Of a DNA stretch of 64,000 nt, positions 40,150-62,379 are shown in pieces (position 1 is the stretch's first letter; each line of letters starts with the position of its first letter). Origin of the DNA: Candidatus Aldehydirespirator sp. (GTDB taxonomy: Bacteria; Actinomycetota; Acidimicrobiia; Acidimicrobiales; Aldehydirespiratoraceae); NCBI GenBank assembly GCA_965203635.1, contig OZ241903.1:2690918-2754917 (forward strand), written 5' to 3'. The position numbers and the translations under genes are program-made. The notes beneath the pieces were generated by a model that worked only from the letters and a program-made list of their open reading frames with translations, searched no databases and had not been told where the DNA came from.

Positions 40150-42021
40150 TCAGTGGTTGTGGCGGGGAAGGTCCTTGGTGCGGGAGGTGTCCTGGTACTT
40201 CAGGGCGGGGCGCAGGACCATGCCCTCGTCCATCTGGGTCACCATCGACCGCTGGATCTCCTGCCAGGGAGTGTGCGACTCCGGCACCGGGTAGCCGCCC
40301 GAGGCCTCGAGTTCGGCCCGGCGCCGCTCGATCTCGGCCTCGTCGACGAGCATGTCGGCCCGGCCGCGGCGCAGGTCGATGCGGATCCGGTCGCCGGTTC
40401 GCAGCAACGCCAGCCCGCCGCCGGCCGCGGCCTCGGGCGAGGCGTTGAGGATCGAGGGCGACCCGGAGGTGCCCGACTGGCGGCCGTCGCCGATGCACGG
40501 CAGCGAGTGCACCCCTCGCACCAGCAGCGCGGCCGGGGGCTGCATGTTGACCGCCTCGGCCGCGCCGGGGTAGCCGATCGGCCCGACCCCGCGCACGATG
40601 AGCATGCAGTGCTCGTCGATGTCGAGGTCGGGGTCCTCGATGCGGGCCCGGTAGTCCTCGGGCCCGTCGAACACGATGGCCCGCCCCTCGAACGCGTCGG
40701 GGTCGTCGGGGTCGGACAGGTAGCGCTGCCGGAACTCGTCGGAGATGACGCTGGTCTTCATGATGGCGCTGTCGAACAGGTTGCCCGACAGGTGCACGAA
40801 GCCGGCGTCCTCCAGCAGCGGCTCGTCGGTGGTGCGGATCACGGCGGGATCGGCGATGCCCGCCTCCCCGCAGTTCTGTCCGATGGTGCGGCCGTTGGCG
40901 GTGATCGCGTCGGGATGGGGAAGCAGCCCGCCCCGCATGAGCTCGCCCACCACCGCGGGGACCCCTCCGGCGTGGTGGAAGTCCTCTCCCAGGTACTCCC
41001 CCGCGGGCATGAGGTTCACCAGCAGCGGCACGGCCAGCCCGTGCTTCTGCCAGTCGTCGTTGTCGAGGGCGACGCCGAGGTGCGCGGCGACCGCGTTGAG
41101 GTGGATCGGGGCGTTGCTCGATCCGCCGATGGCGGAGTTCACCACGATGGCGTTCTCGAAGGCCTGCCGGGTCATGATGTCGGAGGGGCGCAGGTCCTCC
41201 CGCACCATCTCGACGATGCGCACCCCGGTGCGGTAGGCCATCTGGCCCCGCTCCCGGTGCGGCGCGGGGATGGCGGCCGAGCCCGGCAGCTGCATCCCCA
41301 GCGCCTCGGTCAGGCTGTTCATGGTGGTGGCGGTGCCCATGGTGGAGCAGTAGCCCACCGACGGCGCGGCCGAGGCCACCAGGTCGACGAAGCCGGTCTC
41401 GTCGACCTCGCCGGCGGCGTAGAGCTCGCGGGCCTTCCAGATGATGGTGCCCGAGCCGGTGCGCCGGCCCTCGTGCCAGCCGCTGAGCATGGGGCCCACC
41501 GACAGCGCGATGGCGGGCAGGTTGACGGTGGCCGCGGCCATCAGGCATGCCGGGGTGGTCTTGTCGCAGCCGATGGTGAGCACCACCCCGTCGAGGGGAT
41601 AGCCCTGGAGCACCTCGACGATGCTGAGGTAGGCCAGGTTGCGGTCGAGCGCGGCGTTGGGCCGCTTGCCGGTCTCCTGGATGGGGTGCACGCCGAACTC
41701 GAAGGCGATCCCGCCCGCCTCCCGGATGCCCTCGCGGACCCGTTTGGCCAGTTCCAGGTGGTGCCGGTTGCACGGCGACAGGTCCGAGCCGGTCTGGGCG
41801 ATCCCGATCATGGGCTTGCCGGACTGGAGCTCCTCGCGGGTGAGTCCGTAGTTGGCGTAGCGCTCGAGGTAGATCCCCGACATGAGCGGATCGTCCACGA
41901 TGTCGAACCAGGCCGCCGACCGCAGCCCGCCCCGGCCGGGCCCCGGATCGGGACGGGACGGGCCGGACGGGTGCAGCGGGCGGGGTTCGCCGGATCCGGG
42001 GGAAGCAGTCATCGCAGCCAC
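40150..42021 (-). CDS. IlvD/Edd family dehydratase (sugar-acid dehydratase-like)
   Basis: [68 protein letters not shown], and a C-terminal LPRHNH. The start may be a few codons later. Confidence 0.9.
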
Positions 42022-42048
42022 GCTAGGCGCTGGCCGGCGAGTTGGGGC

Positions 42049-43359
42049 TCAGCGGGAGGCCTCGTCGAGCACGCGGTCCAGGACGCCCACGAAGCGGTGG
42101 ATGTCGGTGAACGAGTTGTACAGGGGCACCGGCGCGGCCCGGATCACGTCGGGGTAGCGCCAGTCGCAGACGACGTCGGCGTCCTCCAGTGCCTGATGCA
42201 CGGCCCGGCCGTCGACGCCGGGCATCTTGACCCGCAGCGCGTACTGGCAGCCCCGCTCGGCCGGCGCGGTCGGTGTGATGGTTTCCACCCGGTCGCCGAT
42301 CACCTCGGCCAGGAGCATGTCCAGGTATTCGATCTGCCGTTGCGACTTGGCCCGCAACGGCTCCATTCCGCCGGCCCGGTCGAACACGTCGAGCGACGCC
42401 CGCAGGGCGGCCATGGTGAGGATGGGCGGGTTGGAGAGCTGCCACGACTCGACCGTGCCGATGGGATCGAAGACGGTGCCCATCTCGAAGCGGATGTCGG
42501 GGCGCTGGCCCCACCATCCCAGGAACTTGGGCAGCGACCGGTCGCCGGCGTGGCGGTCGTGCACGAAGGCGCCGCCGACGGTGCCCGGGCCGCCGTTGAG
42601 GTACTTGTAGCTGCACCAGGCTGCGAAGTCGACGTTCCAGTCGTGCAAGGCCAGCGGGATGTTGCCCACCGCGTGGGCGAGGTCGAAGCCGACCCGGGCG
42701 CCGGCGTCGTGGGCTGCGGCCGCGATCTCCGCCATCGGGAGCACCTGGCCGGTGTAGTACTGGACTCCGGGGAGCATCACCAGCGCCAGCTCAGGGCCGT
42801 GCTCGGCTATGAGGGCCAGCAGGTCGTCGGGCCGCAGCGTCTCCGAGCCTGCCCGCGGGCGGGCGACAACCAGCGACTCGGCCGGATCGTGGCCCCGCTG
42901 GCGGATCTGGCTCTCGACCGCGAAGTGGTCGCTGGGGAAGGCGTGGTCCTCGATGAGGATCTTGTGCCGCTCGGGGGTGGGGTCGTAGAAGCTCACCATC
43001 AGCAGGTGCAGGTTGACGGTGAGCGAGTTCATGGCGACGACCTCGTTGGGGCGCCCGCCGACGAGCCGCCCCAGCGAGCCGGTCAGCAGCTCGTGATAGG
43101 GCAGCCACGCCAGCTCGCCCTCGAAGTGAGCGGCCGCGCCGAGTCGGGCCCACCGTTCCAGCTCGGCGTTCACGTAGCCGGCCGCGGCCCGGGGCACGGC
43201 TCCCAGAGAGTTCCCGACGAGGTAGACCTGCGGCGACCCGTCCCGACCCTCCGGAAGGTGGAACTCGTCGCGGAACGAGGCCAGCGGATCGGCCGCGTCC
43301 AGGGCCGCCGCGGTCTCGGCGCCGGTAGTGAGCACGATGCCCGAACCGGTCATGAGCAC
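42049..43359 (-). CDS. kynU: Kynureninase
   Basis: FHLPEG...VYLVGNSLG, FPSDHFAVESQ, and DLAHAVGNIPLALHDWNVDFAAWCSYKYLNGGPG (PLP lysine motif). Confidence 0.92.
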   Translation of the reverse strand: MLMTGSGIVLTTGAETAAALDAADPLASFRDEFHLPEGRDGSPQVYLVGNSLGAVPRAAAGYVNAELERWARLGAAAHFEGELAWLPYHELLTGSLGRLVGGRPNEVVAMNSLTVNLHLLMVSFYDPTPERHKILIEDHAFPSDHFAVESQIRQRGHDPAESLVVARPRAGSETLRPDDLLALIAEHGPELALVMLPGVQYYTGQVLPMAEIAAAAHDAGARVGFDLAHAVGNIPLALHDWNVDFAAWCSYKYLNGGPGTVGGAFVHDRHAGDRSLPKFLGWWGQRPDIRFEMGTVFDPIGTVESWQLSNPPILTMAALRASLDVFDRAGGMEPLRAKSQRQIEYLDMLLAEVIGDRVETITPTAPAERGCQYALRVKMPGVDGRAVHQALEDADVVCDWRYPDVIRAAPVPLYNSFTDIHRFVGVLDRVLDEASR

Positions 43360-43383
43360 CCACCCCAGGCGTCGCGGTCCAAC

Positions 43384-44091
<708 letters not shown>

Positions 44092-44093
44092 GG

Positions 44094-44843
44094 TCAGCTC
44101 TCCGTGTCATCGCGCAGATACAGGCGGTGAACGTCTGGATCGGCTCGGATGTCGTCGGGATCGCCCGAAGCGATGAGCGAGCCCTGGTGCAGCACCGATA
44201 TGCGGTCGGCGACGGAGAACACGACGTCCATGTCGTGCTCCACCAGCAGCACCGCGATGGTCTCCGCCAGGCCCCGGATCAACTCGGCCAGCCGGCCCGC
44301 CTCGTCGGGGGCCATGCCCGCCATGGGCTCGTCCAGCAGGAGCACCTGGGGGTCCGAGGCCATGGCCATGGCGATCTCCAGCTGGCGGGTCTGGCCGTGG
44401 GACAGCCGCTGGGTCGACACGGTGGCCTCCTCCCCCAGGCCGACCTGGTCGAGGAGAACCTCCGCCCGTTCGACGCGTCCCGCATTCCGGGCTGCCGGGC
44501 GAAAGAACCTGAAGCTGTGGCGGTCCATCGCCTGGAGGGCGAGCTCGACGTTCTCTCTCGCCGTGAAGTCCCGGAAGACGGAGGACACCTGGTAGCTGCG
44601 GGCGACGCCCGCGTGGACCCGCTGCGGGAGGCTCAACTCCGTGATGTCCGCACCGTCGAGCCATACCGTCCCGGCGTCGGGCCGCAGCTCGCCCGAGAGC
44701 TGGGCCAGCGCGGTGGTCTTTCCCGCTCCGTTTGGGCCGATGAGCGCGTGGATCTCGCCCGACGCCACCGACAGCGCCAGGTCGTCGGTGACCACCAGCC
44801 CGCCGAAGGCCTTCTGCAGTCCCCGGCACGACAGCTCAGTCAT
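44094..44843 (-). CDS. livG: Branched-chain amino acid type ABC transporter, ATP-binding protein (LivG-like)
   Basis: Walker A GPNGAGKTT, signature LSHGQTRQLE, Walker B LLLDEP. Confidence 0.9.
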   Translation of the reverse strand: MTELSCRGLQKAFGGLVVTDDLALSVASGEIHALIGPNGAGKTTALAQLSGELRPDAGTVWLDGADITELSLPQRVHAGVARSYQVSSVFRDFTARENVELALQAMDRHSFRFFRPAARNAGRVERAEVLLDQVGLGEEATVSTQRLSHGQTRQLEIAMAMASDPQVLLLDEPMAGMAPDEAGRLAELIRGLAETIAVLLVEHDMDVVFSVADRISVLHQGSLIASGDPDDIRADPDVHRLYLRDDTES

Positions 44844-45885
44844 GGCTCCGCCTCGAGCCGAGCAGCGTTCCGGTCAGTCCCCTGGGCGCTCCCAGCACTA
44901 TCGCGAGCAGGCCGACGCCGACAAAGAACTGCCAGTTGTCGGTGACGTCTATCGAGAGCTCCTCCAGCAGGAACAGCGCGCCGGCGCCGATCACGCCGCC
45001 GATCAGGCTGCCCAGCCCGCCAACGATCACCATGACCAGCAACTCGCCCGACTCGGTCCACTCGGCGAACGACGGCGACAGGAACTGCGACTCGGTCACG
45101 GCCATGGCGCCGGCCAGCGAGGTGATGGCGGCGGACAGGGCGAAGGCGGCCAGCCGGTACCGGTAGGTCTGGTAGCCGAGCGCGGCCATGCGCGCCATGT
45201 TGCTGCGGCAGCCTCGCACCACCCGGCCGAACGGTGATCTGACCACCAGGTTCAGGATCACCGTGAAGGCCACCAGCACGGCGAAACACACGTAGAAGAA
45301 GACGGTGTCGTCCGACGCGTCGAGCGGTCCGATGGCTCGGCGGGCCGCGAACAGCCCGACGCCGTCGTCGCCGCCGTAGATCTCGAGCGCGTTGAACAGG
45401 AAGTAGATCATCTGGTTGAACGCCAGGGTCGCCATGATGAAGTAGACGCCCTTGGTGCGCAGGCTCAGCCCGCCGATCACCAGCCCCAGCAGCGCGCCGA
45501 CAACCGTGGCCAGGGGCCAGGTCACGAGCGCCTGGTCCGTTCCGGGAATCCCGAGGAGCCGGGAACCGTCCAGGCTGTGGTATGTCAGCGCGCCCGCGGT
45601 GTATGCGCCGGCGCCGAGGAACGTCGCGTGGCCCAGGCTGACCATCCCCCCGTATCCCATGACGAAGTCGAGACTCATCGCGGCCAGCCCGAAGATGACC
45701 ACCCGGGTGAGCACGGTCACCAGATAGCCCCGACCGCCGGCATCGACCCACAGCGGCGCCACCGAAAGCAGCGCCAGGAATACCACGGTCAGCCCGATGT
45801 GCCATCGGGAGGGGCCCCACGCCCAGAATCCGAGGCGGATGCCGGTGCGCCCGGGGCTCGACCGGGCGGTCTGCGGATCACTCAT
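44836..45885 (-). CDS. livM: Branched-chain amino acid type ABC transporter permease (LivM-like)
   Basis: Polytopic membrane protein with DFVMGYGGMVSLGHATFLGAGAY, typical of LivM. Confidence 0.9.
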   Translation of the reverse strand: MSDPQTARSSPGRTGIRLGFWAWGPSRWHIGLTVVFLALLSVAPLWVDAGGRGYLVTVLTRVVIFGLAAMSLDFVMGYGGMVSLGHATFLGAGAYTAGALTYHSLDGSRLLGIPGTDQALVTWPLATVVGALLGLVIGGLSLRTKGVYFIMATLAFNQMIYFLFNALEIYGGDDGVGLFAARRAIGPLDASDDTVFFYVCFAVLVAFTVILNLVVRSPFGRVVRGCRSNMARMAALGYQTYRYRLAAFALSAAITSLAGAMAVTESQFLSPSFAEWTESGELLVMVIVGGLGSLIGGVIGAGALFLLEELSIDVTDNWQFFVGVGLLAIVLGAPRGLTGTLLGSRRSHD

Positions 45886-46795
45886 CGGCCAGGCCGAACA
45901 GGCCGTTGGGCTTGACTACCAGCACGACGACCATCACCAGGTAGATGCTGGCCGACGCCACCGAGGCGCCGGCCGTGGCCGCGGTGCTCGGGTCGACGAA
46001 CCGCCCGAAGAGGTCGGGCAGGTAGGTGCGGGCCCAAGTGTCGGCCAGACCCAGCATCAGCGAGCCGTACAGGGCTCCCTTGAGCGATCCGATGCCGCCG
46101 ACCACGATCACCACGAAGCTCAGGATCAGGAAGTGATCGCCGATGCCCGATTCCACCGACAGGAACGGCGCGGCCACCACGCCGGCCAGTCCCGCGAGGC
46201 CCGCTCCTACCGCGAACACCAGGGTGTAGAGCAGCCGGACGTTCACTCCGAACGCGCCCAGCAGTTCCCGGTGCGTCCGGCCGGCCCGTATCCACATGCC
46301 GACCCGGGTGCGTTCCACCAGCAGGTGCAGGAAGACGATGACCGCGATCCCGGTCGCGGTGATGGCCAGCCGGTAGGCCGGGTAGGGCAGGCCGGGCAAC
46401 ACCGGCACCGTGCGATCCAGGAACGCGGGGGCCGAGACGCTCCTCGGCGTCGCGCCCCAGACCATCTGCACAGCCTGGTTGGCGATCAGCACCAGCGCGA
46501 ACGTGGCCAGGACTTGATACAGGTGATCGCGGTCGTACAGGCGCCTGATCAGGCCCAACTCGACGATCAGGCCGGCAACCGCCGCCCCGGCTATGCCGGC
46601 CAGCAGGGCCAGCAGGTAGTTGCCGGTACGGCCCCCCACGTCCGCGGCCACGAACGCCCCGACCATGAACAACGAGCCATGGGCCAGGTTGATGATGTTC
46701 ATGATCCCGAATATCAGCGTGAGCCCCGCTGAGACCATCAACAGGGTGAAACCCAGCTGGAGCCCGTTCAGGGTCTGCTCAATGAACAGGTTCAT
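45878..46795 (-). CDS. livH: Branched-chain amino acid type ABC transporter permease (LivH-like)
   Basis: MNLFIEQTLNGLQLGFTLLMVSAGLTLIFGIMNIINLAHGS is a typical LivH N-terminus. Confidence 0.9.
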   Translation of the reverse strand: MNLFIEQTLNGLQLGFTLLMVSAGLTLIFGIMNIINLAHGSLFMVGAFVAADVGGRTGNYLLALLAGIAGAAVAGLIVELGLIRRLYDRDHLYQVLATFALVLIANQAVQMVWGATPRSVSAPAFLDRTVPVLPGLPYPAYRLAITATGIAVIVFLHLLVERTRVGMWIRAGRTHRELLGAFGVNVRLLYTLVFAVGAGLAGLAGVVAAPFLSVESGIGDHFLILSFVVIVVGGIGSLKGALYGSLMLGLADTWARTYLPDLFGRFVDPSTAATAGASVASASIYLVMVVVLVVKPNGLFGLADE

Positions 46796-46827
46796 GCTGT
46801 CGCCGCGCCGATAGTCGGGAATGGATC

Positions 46828-46868
46828 GGGCCGGTCCGCCAGAGCGCGAGCATCCGGCGGACCGGCCC
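46828..46868 (-). terminator. Intercistronic 13-bp perfect hairpin after the binding-protein gene
   Basis: GGGCCGGTCCGCC-N15-GGCGGACCGGCCC, between the binding-protein stop (46884) and the livH start (46795). Confidence 0.55.
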
Positions 46869-46883
46869 GAACGTAGCCGACGT

Positions 46884-48266
46884 TCAGCCGGTCAAGGGAC
46901 AATCGGAGGCGTAGGCGTCCGCGTGATCCTCCAGGATCGTGGCCACGATCGTGTTGGTCAGGTCTCCGTGGACCGGGTCCCTCACAACCTCGAGGAGGTA
47001 CCAGTCCTGGATCGGGTGATTGTTGGTGTTGAAGCTGAAGTTGCCGCGGACGCTGTCGAAGTCGGCCGCCTTGAGCGCCTCGCGCATGCCGGCCGTGTCG
47101 CCGGCGGAGCCCCCGTTGGCGTCCAGCGCGGAGATCAGCAGCAGCGCGGTGTCGTAGCCCTGGGCCGCGTAGGACGTCGGGGTGCTGCCGTACTTCTCGC
47201 GGTAGGCCTCGACGAAGATCCGGTTGGCCTCGTTGTCCATGTCGGGTGCCCAGAACGAGGAGTTGACCAGGCCCAGGGCCGCGTCGCCGATGGCGTCCAC
47301 GAGGAACTCGTCGAACGATGACACCGGACCGAATATCGGAATCTCAAGGCCGGACGCCTGGTACTGCTGGATGAAGGCGATGCCCATCCCGCCCGGGTAG
47401 AAGAAGTACACCGCATCGGGGTCCGCTTCCCGGATCTGAGCGATGGCCTGGGCGTAGTCGGTCGCCCCCAGCTCGGTGTAGATCTCCTCTTCGACGTCGC
47501 CGTAGAACCGCTTGAAGCCGGCCACCATGTCGTGGCCAGCCTGGTAGTTCGGGGCCAGCGCGACCGCGCTCTCGTAGCCTTCGTCGGCCACGTATACGCC
47601 GATCGCCTCGGACTGGTTGTCGTTCTGCCAGGACGCCACGAAGTAGTTCTCGTGACACTGGGCGCCCGCGAACGGCGACGGTGCCGCGTTGGGGCTGATG
47701 TAGATGGTTCCCGCGTTGACGACCTGCGGCACGACCGCGCCGGCAACGTTCGAGAAGACGATCCCGGTCATCACGTCGACCTCGTCCCTGGTGAGCATGC
47801 GGTCGGCCAGCTGCTGGGCGAAGGCCGGATCGCGGCCGTCGTCCTCGACAACGAGATCGAGCTCGTAGCGGCCGTCGATCTCGAAGGCCAGCTGGAAGGC
47901 GTCGCGGATTCCCTCGCCGAGGTACGCCGCCCCGGTCGAGAGGGTCGTGATCATGCCGACCTTGACCTTCCCGCCGACCACCTCGGGCTCTTCGGCCTCT
48001 TCGGGCTCCTCGGCCGGCTCGGGCTCGGCCTCCTCGGCCGGTTCAGGGGCCTCTTCGGGCTCCTCGGCCGGCTCAGGCTCGGGCGCAGCCTCGGGCTCCT
48101 CGGCCGGCTCGGGCTCGGGCGCTGCCTCTGCCGGCTCGGCCGGTGTCGCATCCTCGCTGTCATCGTCGCCGCAGGCGGCGGCCAGGATGCCGAATGTGGC
48201 CACAATCGCCACCGCACGCCAAAGCCACCATGACCGCGTGCGGGTCAAGTTCGTGGTTCCTCCCAT
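46884..48266 (-). CDS. LIV-family ABC substrate-binding lipoprotein with an acidic Pro/Glu spacer
   Basis: Lipobox ILAAAC, a PEPEPAEE-type spacer, then a type-I periplasmic binding fold (KVKVGMITTLSTGAAYLG...). Confidence 0.9.
   Translation of the reverse strand: MGGTTNLTRTRSWWLWRAVAIVATFGILAAACGDDDSEDATPAEPAEAAPEPEPAEEPEAAPEPEPAEEPEEAPEPAEEAEPEPAEEPEEAEEPEVVGGKVKVGMITTLSTGAAYLGEGIRDAFQLAFEIDGRYELDLVVEDDGRDPAFAQQLADRMLTRDEVDVMTGIVFSNVAGAVVPQVVNAGTIYISPNAAPSPFAGAQCHENYFVASWQNDNQSEAIGVYVADEGYESAVALAPNYQAGHDMVAGFKRFYGDVEEEIYTELGATDYAQAIAQIREADPDAVYFFYPGGMGIAFIQQYQASGLEIPIFGPVSSFDEFLVDAIGDAALGLVNSSFWAPDMDNEANRIFVEAYREKYGSTPTSYAAQGYDTALLLISALDANGGSAGDTAGMREALKAADFDSVRGNFSFNTNNHPIQDWYLLEVVRDPVHGDLTNTIVATILEDHADAYASDCPLTG
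47979..48170 (-). repeat. Low-complexity Pro/Glu/Ala coding repeat (about 64 codons) with DNA-level tandem units
   Basis: GDDDSEDATPAEPAEAAPEPEPAEEPEAAPEPEPAEEPEEAPEPAEEAEPEPAEEPEEAEEPE. The unit CTTCGGGCTCCTCGGCCGGCTC(G/A)GGCTCGG recurs. Confidence 0.8.
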
Positions 48267-48310
48267 TTGCCCTCCTTGATTACGCGGGACCGTACCTATC
48301 CCGGTAACGC

Positions 48311-48322
48311 GAATCTAGATTC
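48311..48322. promoter_or_regulatory. Perfect 12-bp palindrome in the promoter region of the LIV operon
   Basis: GAATCTAGATTC lies 45-56 nt upstream of ATG 48266. Read on the minus strand it contains a TAGATT -10-like hexamer. Confidence 0.4.
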
Positions 48323-48404
48323 CGGAACCTGGCCCCGCCAGTGCCGACTAGGACCATAGACATATCAATTGAGGTATGCATCTTGGGATACCGCGTCGGC
48401 GGCG

Positions 48405-49927
<1,523 letters not shown>

Positions 49928-49951
49928 TTGGCGGCGCGCAGCCCCCTGTGG

Positions 49952-51397
49952 CTAGACGATCGAGATGCTGTGGGAGACGTTCTTGACGACCATGTAGTTG
50001 TGCAGGCCCTCTACTCCCCCTTCGCGGCCGTACCCGCTGGACTTGACGCCGCCGAAGGGCGTCTCGGGCACCGACGCCTCGAGCGTGTTGATCGACAGGT
50101 TCCCGGCCTGCACCCGCTCGACCATCCGGTCGGCGTAGTCGGCGCGGTTGGTGAACCCGTAGGCGGCGAGCCCGAAGGGCACCGAGTTGGCGCACTCGAT
50201 GGCCTCGTCGAGCGAGCCCACCCGGTTGACGATGGCCACCGGCCCGAAGGGCTCCTCCCGCATCACCCGGGCGTCGTCGGGGACGTCGGCGAGCACGGTG
50301 GGCTCGAAGAAGTAGCCCGACGTCCCGATCCGGGATCCGCCGGTGGCAACCTCCGCGCCCTTGTCTCGGGCGTCGGCCACGAACTCGGTGATGGCGGCCA
50401 GCCGGCGGTCGTTGGCCAACGGCCCCATCTCCACGCCGGGCTCCATGCCGTCGCCGACCACCGTGGCCGCGGCCCGCTCGGTGAACACGTTGAGGAAGTC
50501 CCGGTAGATGCTGTCGTGGACGAAGAAGCGCGTCGGGGAGGTGCACACCTGCCCGGCGTTGCGCATCTTGCGCACCGCGGAGGTGACCGCGGCCGCCCGC
50601 GTGTCGGTGTCCTCGCACACGATCACCGGCGCGTGCCCGCCGAGTTCCATCAGCACCGGCGTCATGTGGTCCGAGGCCAGGCCGGTGAGATGCCGCCCCA
50701 CCGCGGTCGAGCCGGTGAAGGCGACCAGGCGGATCGACTCGTGCGGGATCAGGTACTCGGAGATCTCCGACGGCACGCCGTACACCAGGTTCAGCACCCC
50801 CGGCGGCAGGCCGGCGTCGTGGAAGGCCCGGGCGATGTGCATGGCGCCGGCGGGGGTCTCCTCGGCCGGCTTGAGGATGATGGAGCATCCCGCCGCGATC
50901 GCGCCGGCCACCTTGCGGGCGGGCTGGCTCATCGGGAAGTTCCACGGCGAGAACGCGGCCACCGGGCCGATGGGCTGATGGTGGACGATGTAGTTGATGC
51001 CGGGCTCGCTGGGGATGACCCGGCCGTAGGTGCGCACCGCCTCGCCGGCGTCCCATTCGAAGAACTCGGCGCCCCGGATGACCTCCAGCTTGGCCTGCGG
51101 GTACGGCTTGCCCAGCTCCAGGGTGATGTCCCGCCCGATCTCGGCCTGACGCTCGCGCATGATGGCCGCGGCCCGGCGCAGCACGTCGGCCCGATCCTTG
51201 GGCGCAGTCCGGCTCCAGACCTCGAACCCCTTGGCGGCGGCCTCCAGCGCGTCGTCGAGGTCCTGGCGGCCGGCCCGGGCCAGCCGCCCGATGACCTGCT
51301 CGTCGGCCGGGTTGACCACCGGCAGGTCGTCCGCGGTGGTGCGCCAGGTGCCGCCGATGTAGAGCCCGACGTCGGGATAGTCAGTCATAGCCCGCAT
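49952..51397 (-). CDS. NAD(P)-dependent aldehyde dehydrogenase (semialdehyde dehydrogenase-like)
   Basis: FSPWNFP, LKPAEETP, MELGGHAP, MRNAGQVCTSPTR. It is a paralogue of 12343..13812. The start is ATG 51397 or 51388. Confidence 0.9.
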   Translation of the reverse strand: MRAMTDYPDVGLYIGGTWRTTADDLPVVNPADEQVIGRLARAGRQDLDDALEAAAKGFEVWSRTAPKDRADVLRRAAAIMRERQAEIGRDITLELGKPYPQAKLEVIRGAEFFEWDAGEAVRTYGRVIPSEPGINYIVHHQPIGPVAAFSPWNFPMSQPARKVAGAIAAGCSIILKPAEETPAGAMHIARAFHDAGLPPGVLNLVYGVPSEISEYLIPHESIRLVAFTGSTAVGRHLTGLASDHMTPVLMELGGHAPVIVCEDTDTRAAAVTSAVRKMRNAGQVCTSPTRFFVHDSIYRDFLNVFTERAAATVVGDGMEPGVEMGPLANDRRLAAITEFVADARDKGAEVATGGSRIGTSGYFFEPTVLADVPDDARVMREEPFGPVAIVNRVGSLDEAIECANSVPFGLAAYGFTNRADYADRMVERVQAGNLSINTLEASVPETPFGGVKSSGYGREGGVEGLHNYMVVKNVSHSISIV

Positions 51398-51402
51398 GGC
51401 AA

Positions 51403-51414
51403 GAATCTAGATCT
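51403..51414. promoter_or_regulatory. Second copy of the GAATCTAGAT motif, directly upstream of the aldehyde dehydrogenase start
   Basis: GAATCTAGATCT shares 10 of 12 positions with 48311..48322. On the minus strand, TAGATT ends 6 nt before ATG 51397 (leaderless geometry). Confidence 0.35.
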
Positions 51415-51479
51415 TCGCCCGACCGGACTCGATTGCCGAGTTTCGGGGTCCACATACCAGCCGTGGTAATTCCTCAATC

Positions 51480-52421
51480 TCACTCGTCACCCTCAGACCG
51501 GACGCGGGCTGCGTGTCGCAGCGCCTCGATCAGCCTGTGAGCGCTGGCGGGCAGCTCGCCACCCGATCGGGTGATGATCCCGACCGGGACCGATGTGCCC
51601 TCTATTTCGACCTTGAGCGACACCAACGCGTCGCGATCGAGGTCGTCGCCGAATATTCCCGACGGGACGACGGCCAGATGCTCGCCCCGTAGCACAAGCG
51701 CTCTCAGAGGCACGGGCGCGACGCACTCGGTGACGTTGTGCGGTGCTCGACTGCACTCCCGGATGAAAGCGGCTTCGATCTGATGGCGCAGCGAGGTGTC
51801 GCGTGGCGGCAGGATCCAGGCGTCGTCCACGAGTTCGGCCAGGCTTCCCCGGTGCCCGGACCGGAGGTGTCTCGGGGTGCAGACGACCTGCACGTCATCG
51901 TCGAACAGCGGCTCGACGTCCACGCCCGGCATCGAGGCCAGAGGGGTCACACGCCCTACCACGAAGTCGACCTGGCCCGACATCAGATCCTCGTGGAGCC
52001 GATCGGGGGTCCCTTCGGAGATCGCGACGCCCACGCCCGGATGACGGCGGGTGACCTCGAACACCGCAGCCGGCAGGATGTCCGCGGTACCGGCGAGGAG
52101 CGTGCCCACTCGCACCTCTCCCCGTTCGCCGTCGACGATCTCGTCGGCGTGGCGGAGCAGCGAGCCCACCTCGGAGGTCACGAGCTGCATATGAGTGATG
52201 AGCGGCGCGCCGGCCGCGGTGACCGTCATGCCCTTGGGTCCCCGGTCGAACAGCTGCACGCCGAGGATCCGCTCGAGCTCGGCCAGCGAGCGAGACATCG
52301 CGGGCTGGGTCAGGTGCAGCACCGCGCTGGCCTCGCGGATCGATCCGCGGTGGGCGATCGTCGCCGCCACGATCATGTGGCGGAGCCTGATCTGCCGTGA
52401 CAGCAGCTCGGCCGGCCGCAC
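51480..52421 (-). CDS. LysR family transcriptional regulator
   Basis: HTH IRLRHMIVAATIAHRGSIREASAVLHLTQPAMSRSLAELE plus a LysR substrate-binding domain. The start is placed at GTG 52421, because the ORF-track start at 52490 would translate through an AT-rich palindromic promoter-like segment. Confidence 0.85.
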   Translation of the reverse strand: MRPAELLSRQIRLRHMIVAATIAHRGSIREASAVLHLTQPAMSRSLAELERILGVQLFDRGPKGMTVTAAGAPLITHMQLVTSEVGSLLRHADEIVDGERGEVRVGTLLAGTADILPAAVFEVTRRHPGVGVAISEGTPDRLHEDLMSGQVDFVVGRVTPLASMPGVDVEPLFDDDVQVVCTPRHLRSGHRGSLAELVDDAWILPPRDTSLRHQIEAAFIRECSRAPHNVTECVAPVPLRALVLRGEHLAVVPSGIFGDDLDRDALVSLKVEIEGTSVPVGIITRSGGELPASAHRLIEALRHAARVRSEGDE

Positions 52422-52430
52422 ATCATAATG

Positions 52431-52440
52431 ATATCGATAT
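52431..52440. promoter_or_regulatory. Perfect 10-bp palindrome in the lysR/marR divergent region
   Basis: ATATCGATAT sits within the AT-rich stretch CATCATAATGATATCGATATGTGCTATG, 10 nt upstream of the proposed lysR start. Confidence 0.35.
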
Positions 52441-52610
52441 GTGCTATGCCGAGTCCCGTCGCTTTTGCTAGGCCCTTCGTCGCAGTTCATCTCAGAAGCG
52501 AGCGTCTCTCTACTCGACTTCGCTCGGCGCTACTCGAAGATCGACGCGAAGTGGTGCCTGTTGGCTCGGATTCTGAGACGCTGTCCTCGTGGTATATCGT
52601 GCCCGGCTGA

Positions 52611-53129: not shown

Positions 53130-53166
53130 TACCTAGGGAGTTGACTATTAGGTCCTTAGGTATTAT
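53126..53166 (+). promoter_or_regulatory. 10-bp perfect inverted repeat bracketing a promoter: candidate MarR operator
   Basis: ATAATACCTA-N21-TAGGTATTAT, with TTGACT (53141..53146) in the spacer and TATACA 17 nt downstream of it. The RBS AAGGAGGAG precedes ATG 53204. Confidence 0.5.
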
Positions 53167-53203
53167 ACATGGTGCATCCGTCCGCGTGCGAAGGAGGAGC
53201 ACC

Positions 53204-54559
53204 ATGAAGCGGGTCAAGTTTGGATGCCTGGCTGTGTTGGCAGCGTTCGCGCTGATCGTCTCGGCCTGCGGTGACGATGACGAGGCGTCGCCGATCCCGA
53301 CGCAGCCGCCAAGCGAGGACGCGTCCGACGCCCAAGCGGCACCGGAACCAGCCGAGTCGGAGACTGAGCCGGAATCCGAACAGGCGCCCGCGGCGACAGA
53401 GGCACCCGAGGCCACTGATCCGGAGGTGCCGACCGAGGAGACGCCGGACGAAGGCGAGACCGAGCCGTCTGCCGGCCCGGTGACGATCGGGCTCCTGTAC
53501 TCGAACTCGGGCCCCGGAGGCGTGCTTGGGCCGCCGGCCGAGCGGGCGCTACGGCTTGCAGTGGAGGACATCAACGCTGCTGGCGGGGTCAACGGCTCCG
53601 AGGTGCGGATCGAACTGGCCGACACCGCTACCGACCCCGCGGTGGGACGCGATGCCATGGAACGGCTGGTGTCGGAGGCCGCAGTGGACGTCGTGATCGG
53701 CATCCACTCCTCCGCTACCCGTGAGGCGGCCAGGCCACTGGCCGAGGAGTTCGACACGCTCTATCTCTACGGCTCCCTCTACGAGGGAGGGGAATGCTCT
53801 GCTGCGATGTTCAACTCCGGCGAGGTTCCGGCCCAGCATCTCGGCCCGGCCATTCCCTGGATCATGGAGCGCACTGGCGGAACCCGGTGGTTCCTGCTCG
53901 GCAACGACTACGTGTGGCCCCGGAAGAGCTTCGAGGCCGCCAAGAGGATCATTGAGGACGCAGGCGGCGAGATTGTGGGCGAGCAGTACGTGCCTCTCGG
54001 CACCCAGGACTTCGGCGATGTGCTCGCTGACCTAGCCGCGGCAGACGCCGATCTGATCCTGCCTGCCCTCGTGGGCGGAGACGCCATCGCGTTCGAACTC
54101 CAGGCCCCCGACTTTGGCGCGGGCCAGGACGAAGTGGCCCGTCTGGCCAACATCTACGAGGAAGGGGTGCTGGGCGCCATCGGGCCAGAACTCACCGCGG
54201 GCATGATCGTGACGCTGGGATACGTCAAGGAGGTCGACACCGCCGCCAACCGTTCCTTCGTGGAGAGGTACGTCTCGGAGTTCGGCCAGGACTTCCCGCC
54301 CAACACCTTCGCAGCCCACGTGTATGAACTCGCTCTCCTGTGGGCAGCCGCGGCCAACGATGCAGGAACCGTAGCGGCGGGAGACGTGAGCGCTGCGCTC
54401 AAGGGCCGGTCTATCGACTCCGTACGCGGTACCGTGACCGTGACCGAGTCGCGCCATCTGGCCCAGCCGATGTTCCTAGTCGAGATAACCCCCGACGGAG
54501 AGCAAGTCATCGTGGAGTCCTTCGAGTCCCTGGATCCCGAAGAAGGCTGCACGCTGTGA
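53204..54559 (+). CDS. LIV/AmiC-family ABC substrate-binding lipoprotein with an acidic spacer
   Basis: MKRVKFGCLAVLAAFALIVSAC lipobox, an acidic Pro/Glu/Thr spacer of about 68 aa (53270..53473), then a type-I binding fold (VTIGLLYSNSGPGGVLG...). Confidence 0.9.
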   Translation: MKRVKFGCLAVLAAFALIVSACGDDDEASPIPTQPPSEDASDAQAAPEPAESETEPESEQAPAATEAPEATDPEVPTEETPDEGETEPSAGPVTIGLLYSNSGPGGVLGPPAERALRLAVEDINAAGGVNGSEVRIELADTATDPAVGRDAMERLVSEAAVDVVIGIHSSATREAARPLAEEFDTLYLYGSLYEGGECSAAMFNSGEVPAQHLGPAIPWIMERTGGTRWFLLGNDYVWPRKSFEAAKRIIEDAGGEIVGEQYVPLGTQDFGDVLADLAAADADLILPALVGGDAIAFELQAPDFGAGQDEVARLANIYEEGVLGAIGPELTAGMIVTLGYVKEVDTAANRSFVERYVSEFGQDFPPNTFAAHVYELALLWAAAANDAGTVAAGDVSAALKGRSIDSVRGTVTVTESRHLAQPMFLVEITPDGEQVIVESFESLDPEEGCTL

Positions 54560-54577
54560 CCACCGCTCCGGCGGTGG
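54560..54577 (+). terminator. Intercistronic hairpin immediately after the binding-protein stop
   Basis: CCACCGC-TCCG-GCGGTGG is a perfect 7-bp stem starting 1 nt after the TGA. Confidence 0.5.
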
Positions 54578-54614
54578 CGGGCCTCGCTAGAGGTGCGATT
54601 GCCCAATTCCATCA

Positions 54615-55460
54615 GTGCTGCATGTACTCAACGCTCTCAGCCTCCTAGCGACTCTCGGCCTCACCGCGCTCGGGCTATGGATCGTCTTCGGGCTGATGAA
54701 CGTAGTGAACGTCGCCCATGGCGAGTTCGCCATGCTGGGCGCCTACTCGATGGTCGTGCTGACCGAGGCGGGACTCAATCATTGGGTCGCGGTGGCCATC
54801 ACGCCCGGGCTCCTGCTGCTGGTCGGCGCCGCATGCGAGCTGACGGTGTTCCGGCGGCTGCGAACCAGGCGGGAGGTCAGCCTGCTGGCCGCCTTCGGAC
54901 TCTCGATAGTCATCCGCGAAGTGGTCCAGTTGGTGTTCGGGCGGCAGCAGCGATCGATCCCGAACCCGCTGCGGGGCGGGACGGAGATCCTCGGCGTCAC
55001 GTACCCCAGATACCAGCTCCTCGTGATCGCGATCGCCATCGGGGTGCTCCTGGCAGCATGGCTCGTGTTGCGCTACAGCCGGGCTGGACTGGTCATGAGA
55101 TCAGTGGTCGCCGACCGGGACCTGGCCGAGACGCTGGGGATCCGAGCGGCGCGGGTGGACACCGTCGCCATGGCGGTGGGAGCAGCGTCGGCCGGCTTGG
55201 CGGGAGCCCTGCTCGCGCCCCGAATCTCAATAGAGCCCACCGCGGGCCTGAACCTGCTGCTCGGCGCATTCCTCGTGGTGATCGTGGGCGGCTTCCGCAG
55301 GGCGAGTGCGGTGGTGCTCGGCGCGGCTGCCGTCGCGGCCATCACCACAGTGGTGGCCCTCTGGTACGACGCAGTCTGGGGGCAGGTGGCCGCGGTGGCC
55401 GCGGCCGCACTCGTGCTCCAGACCCGGGTGGAGACCGGGCTGAGAGGGGTGGTGCGGTGA
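54615..55460 (+). CDS. LIV-type ABC permease (LivH-like)
   Basis: MLHVLNALSLLATLGLTALGLWIVFGLMNVVNVAHGE is a LivH-type N-terminus on a polytopic protein. Confidence 0.9.
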   Translation: MLHVLNALSLLATLGLTALGLWIVFGLMNVVNVAHGEFAMLGAYSMVVLTEAGLNHWVAVAITPGLLLLVGAACELTVFRRLRTRREVSLLAAFGLSIVIREVVQLVFGRQQRSIPNPLRGGTEILGVTYPRYQLLVIAIAIGVLLAAWLVLRYSRAGLVMRSVVADRDLAETLGIRAARVDTVAMAVGAASAGLAGALLAPRISIEPTAGLNLLLGAFLVVIVGGFRRASAVVLGAAAVAAITTVVALWYDAVWGQVAAVAAAALVLQTRVETGLRGVVR

Positions 55461-57196
55461 GACTGGAGCTTCGCCGGCCGGTGCGGGCAGCGTTGATCGT
55501 CGGGGCCGCAGTCGTGGCGGTGGCCGCGCTCCAGAACCAGACGGGCTTCTACGCGGACCAGATCGCGCAAGCGGCAACGCTGGCCCTGTTGGCCGTGAGC
55601 CTCGACATCGTGTGGGGCCACGGAGGCATCGTCAGCCTGGGCCAGACGGTCCCGTTCGGTGTCGCCGCCTACCTGACGGCTCGGCTCACCATGGAAGCGC
55701 CGAACATGACGATCCCGATCATTGTGCTGGCCGCCGTGGCGGGATCCGTCGTCGGCTTGCTAATGGGCATGGTGCTCCTGCGCCGGAGACGGTCGGCCAT
55801 GACCATCGCCCTGTTCACGATGATGCTGTCGCTTCTGGCGGAGCGGCTCGCCGCCAAGCTCCAGATCATCGGCGGATTCAACGGCCTCGGCGGGGTGCCC
55901 CCCTTCCACCTCGGACCGATCGAGCTGTCGAGCGCCACCCGGGACCTGCTGATCGTCGGGGTATGCGCGGCGACCGTTGTGGGGACATGGTCGTTGTTGC
56001 GGCGCCCGGTGGGGGGCGTGCTCCTGGGAGTGCGCGACTGCGAGCCGCGAATGGCCGCTTCCGGCTACCACACCATCGCCGTGAAGATCGCCGCAATGGC
56101 GGCAGGGGGCGCCGTTGCCGGACTCGGAGGCGCCCTCTACGCGATGCAGGCCGGGTTCGTGTATCCCGGAGTGTTCGGCTTCGGGTTCATCGCTGACACC
56201 TTGCTGTGGACCCTCATCGGCGGATTCGGGACTCTTGTCGGGCCGGTTGCGGCGACGGTCGGGTTGACCCTGCTCGAGGAGTACCTCGCCAGCGAGGCGA
56301 TCGAGTACTGGCTCCTGCTCACGGGGCTCTCCTTCCTTCTTCTGGTGATGTTTGTCGAGGGCGGCCTAGCCATGCAGTTCCGCCGCTGGCTGGGGCGAGG
56401 CCCGCGGACGCCCAACCAGGTCGAGCTAGCCCCGAGGGAGCAGAGCCGAAGGGATCCGTCCCGCTTGCGTGCAGTGTCCCTGAGTTCCAGTTTCGGTGCC
56501 TTTCGAGCTCTGAACGGTGTCGACCTGGATGTGGCCGATCCTGGCGTCTACTGCCTCATCGGGCCCAACGGCGCGGGCAAGACGACGCTGCTCGACACAT
56601 TGTGCGGGTTCCAGCGGATCACCTCCGGTCGGGTCGAATTCGACGGCACGGACCTGACCGATCAGCGGCCCTGGAGGTTCGCCCGTATGGGCCTCGCACG
56701 GAAGTTCCAGACCCCCCATGTGATGGGCTCGCTCACGGTGTCCGAGAACGTTGCCCTGGCCGCGTTCGCTAACGGCCAGAGGGCGGGTTGGATGTGGAGC
56801 CGCACCTGGCACGCGGAGGTCCCATCCGAAGCCATGAACGCGCTGACATCAGCAGGACTGAACGAGCGCCTCGACGCTCTGGCCGGGGACCTTTCTCACG
56901 GCGAGCAGCAGTGGCTCGAGACGGTGCTAGCGCTGTGCACCCGACCCCGTGTTGTCCTGCTCGATGAGCCCACCGCGGGAATGACGGCCACCGAGAGCCG
57001 CCACGCCGCCCGGCAGCTCCGAGCCATCGCCGCGAGCCAACGAATCCCCCTCATCGTCGTGGAGCACGACACAACCTTCATCAAGGAGGCTTCCGACCAT
57101 GTCACGGTGCTCGCCGGAGGCGAAGTGATCGCCGAGGGAACAGTCGAGGAGATCGAAGCGGACCCGCGAGTCAAGGACCTCTACTTTGCGCAATGA
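55457..57196 (+). CDS. Fused LIV-type permease (LivM-like) and ATP-binding (LivG-like) protein
   Basis: The N-terminal half is polytopic, with SLDIVWGHGGIVSLGQTVPFGVAAY. The C-terminal half has Walker A GPNGAGKTT, signature LSHGEQQWLE and Walker B VLLDEP. GTG 55457 overlaps the livH-like stop (GTGA). Confidence 0.85.
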   Translation: MRLELRRPVRAALIVGAAVVAVAALQNQTGFYADQIAQAATLALLAVSLDIVWGHGGIVSLGQTVPFGVAAYLTARLTMEAPNMTIPIIVLAAVAGSVVGLLMGMVLLRRRRSAMTIALFTMMLSLLAERLAAKLQIIGGFNGLGGVPPFHLGPIELSSATRDLLIVGVCAATVVGTWSLLRRPVGGVLLGVRDCEPRMAASGYHTIAVKIAAMAAGGAVAGLGGALYAMQAGFVYPGVFGFGFIADTLLWTLIGGFGTLVGPVAATVGLTLLEEYLASEAIEYWLLLTGLSFLLLVMFVEGGLAMQFRRWLGRGPRTPNQVELAPREQSRRDPSRLRAVSLSSSFGAFRALNGVDLDVADPGVYCLIGPNGAGKTTLLDTLCGFQRITSGRVEFDGTDLTDQRPWRFARMGLARKFQTPHVMGSLTVSENVALAAFANGQRAGWMWSRTWHAEVPSEAMNALTSAGLNERLDALAGDLSHGEQQWLETVLALCTRPRVVLLDEPTAGMTATESRHAARQLRAIAASQRIPLIVVEHDTTFIKEASDHVTVLAGGEVIAEGTVEEIEADPRVKDLYFAQ

Positions 57197-57758
57197 AAGC
57201 CCACTGCTGATCCCCTACCGGGGCGCGGTGCCCACCATCGGCAAGAACGTGTACATCGCCCCCAACGCCGCGGTCATCGGCGATGTCGTCATCGGCGACG
57301 AGTCCAGCATCTGGTTCGGAGCGACGGTGCGGGGCGACTTCGGTCCGATCCGCATCGGGGAGCGATGCTCGGTGCAGGACAGTGCCACCGTCCACGTGTT
57401 CCACACCGACTCGGGCCCGGTACCTACACAGATCGGCGACGACGTCACGATCGGCCACGGAGCGGTGATAGAAGGCTGCGTTGTGGGCGACGGGGTGCTG
57501 ATCGGCGCCAACGCCGTGCTGCTTCCGGGGGTGTCGGTGGGCGACGGATCGATCGTGGCTGCGTCGGCGCTGGTCAAAGGGGGCGAGCAGGTGCCCTCCG
57601 GTCACGTGGTCGCGGGTGTACCGGCCAAGGTGATCGGGCCGACCAGCGCCGAGTCGCGGTCTCTTGCCCGGTTCTCGGCCGCGGAGTATGTGGAGCTGCA
57701 GGCGGCCTATCGAGCCGGACAGAGCAGCCGGAATGCCATCGGGGGCCGCGGAGAATGA
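57186..57758 (+). CDS. Gamma-carbonic-anhydrase/PaaY-like hexapeptide-repeat protein
   Basis: Left-handed beta-helix repeats (VYIAPNAAVIGDVVIGDESSIWFGATVRGD...IGDDVTIGHGAVIEGCVVGDGVLIGANAVL). TTG start overlapping the upstream gene by 11 nt. Confidence 0.85.
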   Translation: MRNESPLLIPYRGAVPTIGKNVYIAPNAAVIGDVVIGDESSIWFGATVRGDFGPIRIGERCSVQDSATVHVFHTDSGPVPTQIGDDVTIGHGAVIEGCVVGDGVLIGANAVLLPGVSVGDGSIVAASALVKGGEQVPSGHVVAGVPAKVIGPTSAESRSLARFSAAEYVELQAAYRAGQSSRNAIGGRGE

Positions 57759-59098: not shown

Positions 59099-59102
59099 AC
59101 CG

Positions 59103-60978: not shown

Positions 60979-60986
60979 GGGCAGCC

Positions 60987-62345: not shown

Positions 62346-62379
62346 GATTGCGAGACTATTGGCAGACTTGGGCTGACTG

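Follow-up and report, generated by a model that had tools for sequence, protein, structure and literature searches.

Gene content and organization of the cluster

The DNA analyzed here is a window of 64,000 nucleotides from Candidatus Aldehydirespirator sp. (contig OZ241903.1, positions 2,690,918 to 2,754,917), and the subject of this study is a cluster of 11 head-to-tail genes on its minus strand (40150–52490), encoding in order a LysR-type regulator, an aldehyde dehydrogenase (ALDH), a DapA-like protein, 3-hydroxyanthranilate dioxygenase (3-HAO), the five components of an ABC importer (a binding protein and LivH-, LivM-, LivG- and LivF-like proteins), kynureninase (KynU) and an IlvD/Edd dehydratase. 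The source genome, a single contig of 3.54 Mb with about 69% G+C and an estimated completeness of 96%, has its closest relatives among marine and sponge-associated metagenome-assembled genomes of the Acidimicrobiia. All 11 genes listed in the initial annotation were recovered by profile, Pfam and NCBIfam matches, with the strand and order given there (Table 1). Neighbouring genes mostly overlap or are separated by 17–27 nt. Since three gaps are wider (82 nt between the LysR and ALDH genes, 138 nt between the 3-HAO and binding-protein genes, and 88 nt between the binding-protein gene and livH), at least two transcription units are possible.

The real frame of 3-HAO has 183 codons and starts with the ATG at 48956. 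A 211-aa ORF (48280–48915) considered for this assignment was rejected, being out of frame, rich in Arg and Pro and without a family match; the presence of such an overlapping ORF in the 3-HAO slot is attributable to the high G+C content. Both 3-HAO and kynureninase are encoded by one copy each in the source genome, as judged by tblastn. The genome has its true dapA (275 bits) and ilvD (811 bits) at other sites, and the copies in the cluster are therefore paralogues with other roles.

Table 1. Features of the cluster and of the genes near and beyond the right end of the window. KGSADH, 2-oxoglutarate semialdehyde dehydrogenase; SSADH, succinate semialdehyde dehydrogenase; DHDPS, dihydrodipicolinate synthase; TDO, tryptophan 2,3-dioxygenase; KMO, kynurenine 3-monooxygenase; AspDH, aspartate dehydrogenase.
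Feature	Position	Strand	Evidence or remark
LysR-type regulator	51480-52490	-	HTH_1 (PF00126) and LysR_substrate (PF03466)
ALDH, KGSADH/SSADH type, core module member	49952-51397	-	PF00171, 517 bits
DapA-like protein, divergent DHDPS fold, core module member	48974-49927	-	PF00701, just 99.7 bits
3-HAO (HAO/NbaC)	48405-48956	-	NF009763, 278.7 bits (cut-off 220); TIGR03037, 265.6 bits (cut-off 146)
Lipoprotein binding protein (Peripla_BP_6)	46884-48266	-	PF13458, 242 bits
LivH-like permease	45878-46795	-	PF02653
LivM-like permease	44836-45885	-	PF02653
LivG-like ATPase	44094-44843	-	PF00005
LivF-like ATPase	43384-44091	-	PF00005
Kynureninase	42049-43359	-	TIGR01814, 428.5 bits (cut-off 246.4)
IlvD/Edd dehydratase, sugar-acid type	40150-42021	-	NF009560, 1006 bits (cut-off 684)
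GAATCTAGATCT motif	51403-51414	.	6 nt upstream of the ALDH start codon
138-nt AT-richer spacer	48267-48404	.	perfect palindrome GAATCTAGATTC at 48311-48322, 45-56 nt upstream of the binding-protein start
Abhydrolase_3/BD-FAE alpha/beta-hydrolase, candidate eukaryote-type kynurenine formamidase	62380-63240	+	Pfam and synteny
TDO, cut by the window end	63380-64000	-	tblastn, 97% identity to the TDO of L007; TIGR03036, E 2e-83
KMO, AspDH-like and Abhydrolase_6 genes	G000:C1:2755117-2758191 (L091:2118-5192)	-	upstream of TDO, same strand

Conservation of the ALDH, DapA-like and 3-HAO genes

Relatives of the DapA-like protein were taken from a species-representative genome collection and the window proteins were mapped onto 80 loci; neighbours were counted in the 53 loci having at least 7 kb on both sides (23 alphaproteobacterial and 30 others). 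Proteins 74–97% identical to the DapA-like protein were found in more than 566 genome stretches of the Acidimicrobiales and the Rhizobiales (Bosea, Rhizobium and Mesorhizobium). The DapA-like gene is accompanied by an orthologous ALDH gene in 52 of the 53 loci (98%), by a 3-HAO gene in 48 (91%) and by an AspDH-like gene in 40 (75%), and the IlvD/Edd gene is a neighbour in 2 (4%). Genes for KynU (22 loci), KMO (21 loci) and TDO (22 loci) were all found among the 30 non-alphaproteobacterial loci, and an orthologous importer occurs in 22 of the 23 alphaproteobacterial loci and in 1 of the 30 others. The typical operon of the Acidimicrobiales is HAO-KynU-KMO-TDO-ALDH-DapA-like-AspDH, often located behind a MarR gene, and the typical cluster of Bosea is LysR<>ALDH-DapA-like-HAO-SBP-LivHMGF-hydrolase-AspDH (SBP, substrate-binding protein). 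De novo clustering of all ORFs of the loci revealed no further widely shared family besides an Abhydrolase_3 hydrolase.

When the DapA-like proteins were placed in a maximum-likelihood tree, those of the Alphaproteobacteria grouped together with good support (SH-aLRT 99) among the actinobacterial sequences, a topology that, in an unrooted tree, is compatible with a single transfer between the phyla. Distant outgroups, tried for rooting, had branches far too long to indicate the direction of such a transfer. Within the Acidimicrobiia the module is patchily distributed, with three genomes of the same family lacking 3-HAO. In one Actinomycetota lineage (L001:12379-15167; also L002–L004 and L019), the ALDH-DapA-like-HAO-AspDH genes adjoin a gene of the NicX family (2,5-dihydroxypyridine dioxygenase-like) and an alpha/beta-hydrolase gene, so that two ring-cleavage systems for N-heteroaromatic or aminoaromatic compounds lie side by side. 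Distant relatives of the DapA-like protein (35–46% identity) were considered as clues to mechanism and dropped, two being on short contigs without context and one being without HAO.

Absence of the ACMSD branch

In the textbook pathway, the step that follows 3-HAO is catalyzed by 2-amino-3-carboxymuconate semialdehyde (ACMS) decarboxylase (ACMSD). The canonical route for 3-hydroxyanthranilate (3-HAA), 2-nitrobenzoate and 2-aminophenol employs HAO, ACMSD, 2-aminomuconate semialdehyde dehydrogenase (AMSDH), 2-aminomuconate deaminase, 4-oxalocrotonate decarboxylase, a hydratase and DmpFG. Canonical clusters around 3-HAO were found in other actinobacteria (L101 and L105), with genes for an AMSDH-type ALDH, fumarylacetoacetate hydrolase (FAH) family enzymes, a RidA-type deaminase, ACMSD and DmpFG. 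Using queries from these two clusters, no matches to ACMSD, RidA, FAH or DmpG were found in 86 module loci. An ACMSD orthologue was not found in the source genome either, where the Amidohydro_2 paralogues are just 23–26% identical (best match to the ACMSD of L105: 26%, E 8e-7) and RidA, FAH and DmpG gave weak, distant matches alone. An Amidohydro_2 gene in the window (27691–28707) was considered as a hidden ACMSD gene and rejected, because the only solved relatives of its product are weakly matching, generic "Amidohydrolase 2" structures and the product itself does not resemble a true ACMSD.

Of 401 evenly sampled genomes of the Acidimicrobiia, nine carry 3-HAO. The DapA-like gene is present in five of them (the source genome, G212, G335, G683 and G743), which have no ACMSD at E 1e-20, whereas in the other four (G674, G728, G782 and G661) a 40–48% identical ACMSD gene adjoins 3-HAO and the DapA-like gene is absent. 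The exclusion is complete among the nine genomes, which span several families and, being related, do not represent nine independent trials. These data suggest that 3-HAA catabolism is likely to be finished by a branch that does without ACMSD and relies on the ALDH and the DapA-like protein. Like the canonical Nba/Amn route (NbaC-D-E-F, AmnC-E), this branch would start from 3-HAO, include an ALDH-family step and dispose of ACMS as carbon and nitrogen. It differs from that route, with which it is mutually exclusive in the sampled genomes, in that the module loci lack the ACMSD, the RidA-type deaminase, the FAH-type decarboxylase/hydratase and DmpFG, in place of which they encode an enzyme of the DHDPS fold and, in most cases, one of the AspDH family. 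It had been suggested in the initial annotation, as one of two possibilities, that the IlvD/Edd, DapA-family and ALDH proteins act on nitrogenous ring-cleavage products of 3-HAA. This is supported for the ALDH and the DapA-like protein, which are tied to 3-HAO in two phyla, in loci having neither canonical ACMSD-branch genes nor sugar-acid genes and with the DapA-like protein and ACMSD being mutually exclusive, but not for the IlvD/Edd dehydratase.

Properties of the ALDH and DapA-like proteins

The ALDH did not reach any NCBIfam equivalog. It scored 352 and 341 bits with the KGSADH models NF042993 (cut-off 770) and NF052305 (cut-off 750), respectively, and 297 bits with the AMSDH model TIGR03216 (cut-off 693), sharing 32–34% identity with canonical AMSDH. 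The best solved relative is the KGSADH of Azospirillum (5x5t, 481 bits), with about half of the residues identical.

The DapA-like protein falls far below every curated model for DapA, NanA and KdgD, with scores of 80 bits for the KdgD model TIGR03249 (cut-off 374), 77 bits for TIGR00674 (cut-off 206) and 61 bits for TIGR02313 (cut-off 397). We found that the Schiff-base residue Lys177 is kept (motif AIKYS), and that the GTTGE box is changed to GKQGE (Lys59/Gln60), Tyr133 to Trp150 (LWSHP), and Tyr106/Tyr107 to His123-Phe124. Trp150, Lys59/Gln60 and Phe124 stand in for the Tyr133/Thr44/Tyr107 relay of DHDPS. These replacements, together with a C-terminal HxHQKYW motif, do not vary among 56 sequences of the two phyla, which share 156 invariant positions out of 317. 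The extra Lys and His residues would fit a polycarboxylate substrate and a chemistry other than that of DHDPS. An AF2 model of the protein displays a DHDPS-type barrel (pLDDT 95), and Foldseek searches with this model retrieved DHDPS, N-acetylneuraminate lyase (NAL), YagE, MosA and KdgD at 19–25% identity, with KdgD ranked below DHDPS and NAL and no function singled out among these structural neighbours. DHDPS-fold enzymes that use a Schiff base to split a ring-fission product beside an SSADH/HpaE-like ALDH have a precedent in "HpaI-NOT-DapA" (TIGR02313) of the homoprotocatechuate route and in the NahE-type hydratase-aldolases of the NAL/DHDPS superfamily; unlike these enzymes, the DapA-like protein has replaced the catalytic Tyr.

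Properties of the AspDH-like protein

In the source genome the AspDH-like gene lies about 14 kb from the cluster, adjoining the KMO and TDO genes. Since it is located outside the window, this true third partner was missed in the initial annotation. The deduced protein contains NAD_binding_3 and Asp_DH_C domains and scored 229 bits with NF009828 (cut-off 177), and the canonical catalytic histidine (N-x-H) was present in 31 of 31 AspDH-like sequences. In canonical AspDH this histidine adjoins C3 of the aspartate-like substrate, while the human ASPDH is a 2-aminomuconate reductase acting downstream of ACMSD and AMSDH, with the histidine of the metazoan reductase shifted two residues upstream of the AspDH position; prokaryotic ASPDH was treated in the same work as an enzyme of NAD biosynthesis (bioRxiv 10.64898/2026.06.05.730449).

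Five genomes have the ALDH, DapA-like and HAO genes with no AspDH gene adjacent, and in four of these, one being a complete chromosome, no Asp_DH_C gene was found, which suggests that the reductase is accessory and not an obligatory early step. The AspDH-like protein thus appears to be dispensable, favouring a terminal, optional role. With the metazoan ASPDH branch the module has in common that i) an AspDH-family enzyme is associated with the kynurenine pathway and 3-HAO and not with NAD synthesis, and ii) an ALDH makes reduced cofactor that the AspDH-family enzyme plausibly consumes. In contrast to the metazoan enzyme, the bacterial proteins keep the canonical histidine, function without ACMSD, and are dispensable in some carriers.

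Proposed pathway and alternative explanations

For the reactions after ring cleavage we propose, tentatively and as a possibility that may well need revision, a specific chemistry in three steps. TDO, a formamidase-like hydrolase, KMO and kynureninase would turn Trp into 3-HAA; alternatively, 3-HAA or a close relative would be imported by the HAAT-type ABC system. The ring would be opened by 3-HAO to yield ACMS, the imine tautomer of which can be regarded as iminoaspartate bearing a 3-oxopropenyl group on C3. In the first step, the ALDH would oxidise ACMS to 2-amino-3-carboxymuconate, blocking its cyclisation to quinolinate, a compound presumably unusable by these cells. In the second step, the DapA-like protein, through its Schiff-base lysine, would hydrate this product and cleave the C3–C4 bond, releasing iminoaspartate/oxaloacetate and malonate semialdehyde. 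In the third step, the AspDH-like protein, where present, would reduce iminoaspartate to L-aspartate with NAD(P)H from the ALDH, and in genomes without it iminoaspartate would hydrolyse spontaneously to oxaloacetate and ammonia. The scheme is mass- and redox-balanced, and it would explain both why the reductase is optional and why its AspDH-type site is retained.

Several points weigh against the ACMSD-independent branch or against this chemistry. We infer every step after ACMS from sequence, and the scheme ends at malonate semialdehyde. With a Schiff base at C2, a 3-carboxy-2-oxo acid would be as prone to decarboxylation as to retro-aldol cleavage, and the ALDH, being half identical to KGSADH, could act on a saturated omega-oxo acid released by the DapA-like protein. 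Some Acidimicrobiales encode 26–32% identical Amidohydro_2 paralogues that are conceivably ACMS decarboxylases. At one locus (L106:8001-16752), the gene for a 46% identical relative of the DapA-like protein occurs without those for HAO, ALDH and AspDH, its neighbours being genes for TRAP components (DctQM), a BD-FAE-type hydrolase and a complete LIV-type importer. This locus may represent a sister system for a different substrate, and the wider DapA-like family is therefore not restricted to 3-HAA. In addition, a scan for promoter and terminator consensus sequences in the cluster gave nothing beyond chance, with no sigma-70 match in the 138-nt spacer.

In another, metazoan-like order of reactions, the DapA-like protein would be a Schiff-base decarboxylase replacing ACMSD, the ALDH would act as AMSDH and the AspDH-like protein as a 2-aminomuconate-type reductase, with the product, aminohexenedioate, entering the 2-oxoadipate route; in a variant of it, reduction would come first (AspDH, DapA-like, ALDH). 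Decarboxylation of beta-imino and beta-keto acids through a lysine Schiff base is well-established enzymology, a one-for-one replacement of the decarboxylase fits the exclusion of ACMSD, and the AspDH-like gene goes with the module in 75% of the loci. A reductase of the required kind is known in human ASPDH (bioRxiv 10.64898/2026.06.05.730449). However, the histidine of the AspDH-like proteins is at the canonical position and not two residues upstream, the failure to find AspDH-family genes in four of the five genomes mentioned above is hard to fit with an obligatory reduction, and the identity of the ALDH to canonical AMSDH (32–34%) is low, which makes this order unlikely in our view.

Two other explanations were considered. 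According to one, two unrelated pathways lie side by side, a Weimberg/hydroxyproline-type sugar-acid trio having been shuffled with kynurenine genes and an amino-acid importer. The IlvD/Edd dehydratase, DapA-family dehydratase and KGSADH families are indeed those of the non-phosphorylative pentonate route, and the same three families serve in the L-arabinose route of Azospirillum brasilense (AraC, AraD and AraE) and in the KdgD and LhpC routes; among solved structures, sugar-acid dehydratases match the IlvD/Edd protein very closely, with 987 bits for 7m3k (entered as "galactonate dehydratase") and 782 bits for 5oyn, a xylonate dehydratase of Caulobacter, and the ALDH is about half identical to the Azospirillum KGSADH. 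However, the proposed trio is not a conserved set, as the DapA-like gene travels with those for ALDH (98%) and HAO (91%) and no more than 2 of the 53 module loci (4%) contain the IlvD/Edd gene, orthologues of which occur elsewhere in unrelated contexts. The DapA-like protein, which is no closer to KdgD than to DHDPS/NAL, reaches no KdgD or DapA cut-off and is without the catalytic Tyr of the family, and sugar-specific neighbours expected for a sugar-acid trio, i.e. a sugar dehydrogenase, lactonase or sugar transporter, were not found in the examined loci. A mixture of two pathways is thus very improbable. According to the other explanation, the genes serve de novo NAD synthesis, with Trp being converted to quinolinate via 3-HAO and the AspDH-like protein acting as a NadX that supplies iminoaspartate, from which quinolinate would be made by a second route. 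TDO, KMO, KynU and HAO do constitute the bacterial Trp-to-quinolinate set, and the AspDH-like protein passes the cut-off of the NCBIfam "aspartate dehydrogenase" subfamily. However, profile searches of the source genome, a single contig estimated to be 96% complete, found neither nadA nor nadC nor a nadB match exceeding the cut-off; as a control, the nadC model TIGR00078 matched in 12 of 14 genomes, with no match in the source genome, and nadC was also not found in four complete Acidimicrobiales chromosomes carrying the module. Since nadA, nadC and an ACMSD orthologue are all lacking, the route is taken to be catabolic and not for NAD synthesis, and with its functional partner NadA absent a NadX role for the AspDH-like protein is not supported. 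NAD synthesis would also leave the ALDH, the DapA-like protein and the importer unexplained, and it does not suit the Bosea clusters, which are without the upper pathway: three Bosea genomes have the importer, HAO, ALDH, DapA-like and AspDH genes in clusters and kynureninase nowhere, so that what enters the pathway there must be 3-HAA or a very similar compound. We therefore give NAD synthesis next to no credence. The occurrence of nadC does not track the module, the gene being found in G683, G743 and Bosea and not in G212 and G335. The source genome and G401–G404 are without a nadC match, the former being also without nadA, and these Acidimicrobiales presumably rely on salvage of NAD precursors.

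Considering all these data, we lean slightly towards the view that at least two phyla use an undescribed ACMSD-independent branch, in which the ALDH and a rebuilt DHDPS-fold enzyme dismantle ACMS as a 3-substituted iminoaspartate and an AspDH-family enzyme recovers the nitrogen in the form of aspartate. Nothing is unusual about the upper pathway, the ABC architecture or the IlvD/Edd enzyme; new are i) the exclusion of ACMSD, ii) the dispensable reductase, iii) the active-site signature of the DapA-like protein, iv) an orthologous importer of the aromatic-acid type, and v) the probable status of IlvD/Edd as a passenger. No published characterization of an ALDH/DapA-like/AspDH-like module following HAO was found in the literature searched, the scope of which did not include subscription journals. 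The bacterial steps after ACMS (ACMSD, AMSDH and the deaminase) are regarded as settled, and the textbook pathway would gain new reactions if bacteria had another solution that excludes the first. In animals, the steps after ACMS were completed only in 2026, with ASPDH (bioRxiv 10.64898/2026.06.05.730449). If the ACMSD-independent branch is real, the tie of the ASPDH family to the kynurenine pathway, discovered not long ago in metazoa, would be old and widespread in prokaryotes, and many "aspartate dehydrogenases" would gain a non-NAD role. Characterizing the module would provide a function for a highly conserved DapA-like family that is abundant in marine, sponge-associated, wastewater and soil bacteria, and whose members and neighbours are currently named by annotation pipelines as "dihydrodipicolinate synthase family protein", "aldehyde dehydrogenase", "branched-chain amino acid ABC transporter" and "dihydroxy-acid dehydratase". 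With cultured carriers available in Bosea, Rhizobium and Mesorhizobium, the hypothesis is directly testable.

The IlvD/Edd dehydratase

Orthologues of the IlvD/Edd dehydratase (78–86% identity) were found in Candidatus Poriferisodalis, open-ocean metagenomes and Stappia, in three unrelated contexts that contain no kynurenine genes and no evident sugar-acid route. In the source genome, L007 and L009, the gene follows kynU by 27 nt, suggesting that it may be co-transcribed in this narrow clade. It is probably a lineage-specific neighbour and not a part of the module. In two unrelated lineages (L087:9858-10802 and L088:9808-10734), a gene encoding a membrane protein of the Na_Ca_ex family is located after the IlvD/Edd orthologue.

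The importer

The importer is a complete ABC system of the HAAT family, consisting of a binding protein, two BPD_transp_2 permeases and two ATPases, as identified by Pfam. The binding protein fails the LivJ model NF011933 (50 bits, cut-off 477). It shares 52% identity with the Bosea protein encoded directly after HAO, the best paralogue in its own genome being 27.5% identical, and the permeases and ATPases share 47–56% identity with the transporter of the Bosea cluster and 93–99% with those of L009 and L013. The nearest solved relatives of the binding protein (4evq, 4ey3, 4evs and 4f06; similarity of about 156 bits) are entries that we take to be Rhodopseudomonas palustris proteins of the RPA0668/RPA0985 type crystallised with benzoate derivatives, and 3-HAA is itself a substituted benzoate. 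Proteins of the RPA0668/RPA0985 type bind benzoate, 4-hydroxybenzoate and salicylate (PMC3223731). On the basis of these similarities, the predicted ligand is probably 3-HAA or a close relative. The former designation of the system as a LIV importer is thus correct for its HAAT (LIV-type) architecture but not for LivJ specificity, import of an aromatic acid being more likely. The five-component HAAT-family architecture is common to the R. palustris importers of the HbaE (RPA0668)/RPA0985 type, from which the system differs in that a Gram-positive lipoprotein, equipped with a long acidic linker, serves as its binding protein. This linker, of about 60 residues rich in Pro, Glu and Ala, follows the lipobox and is encoded by repetitive DNA (47979–48170).

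Regulation

The LysR-type regulator scored 174 bits with the PcaQ-like model TIGR02424 (cut-off 304). Since its HTH starts at residue 36, the true start of the protein is probably near 52421. Orthologues sharing 85–99% identity are encoded at the same position in L007, L009, L010 and L013. The sequence GAATCTAGAT has four copies in the 3.54-Mb genome, two of which are the intergenic sites of the cluster, upstream of the ALDH and binding-protein genes. A third copy, located before another Amidohydro_2 gene, was considered as a regulon marker and rejected, because it belongs to the last coding part of the preceding ORF (...GKNLDR...) and is therefore coincidental. The motif recurs upstream of the ALDH gene in L007, and L009 and L013 have the palindrome in front of their binding-protein genes. 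The 138-nt spacer is a candidate internal promoter/operator preceding the importer genes, and it is probable that LysR and the shared ATCTAGATTC element co-regulate the enzyme and importer genes. Control of the whole cluster by a single LysR regulator, as put forward in the initial annotation, is plausible.

Genes near and beyond the right end of the window

In L007, the closest relative locus found (94–99% identity), the TDO-side genes directly abut LysR. Relative to this locus, the source genome contains two insertions: the five importer genes, between 3-HAO and kynureninase, and a 10-kb MarR-headed operon of amide-uptake, ligase and thiolase genes (53141–63240), which splits the kynurenine regulon. 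The last gene of the inserted operon encodes the hydrolase at 62380–63240, which is 90% identical to its L007 orthologue located between TDO and LysR. With the TIGR03036 model, TDO scored 280 bits (cut-off 391) despite the E value given in Table 1. The bacterial set for conversion of Trp to 3-HAA, together with HAO (TDO, formamidase, KMO, kynureninase and HAO), is thus present in full in the source genome, the identity of KMO and formamidase being based on family plus synteny only. The cluster described here is probably the larger part of a split catabolic island for 3-HAA derived from Trp or kynurenine.

The Abhydrolase_3 family was seen in 26 module loci, including Bosea loci in which it is coupled to the AspDH-like gene. 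In Bosea (L042:16279-18233 and other loci), whose genomes lack kynureninase, the Abhydrolase_3/BD-FAE hydrolase gene overlaps the start of the AspDH-like gene, and the hydrolase may have a role there other than that of kynurenine formamidase. In the source genome, a cytochrome P450 gene (G000:C1:2758112-2759629; L091:5113-6630, plus strand) is divergent from the hydrolase-AspDH-KMO-TDO operon.

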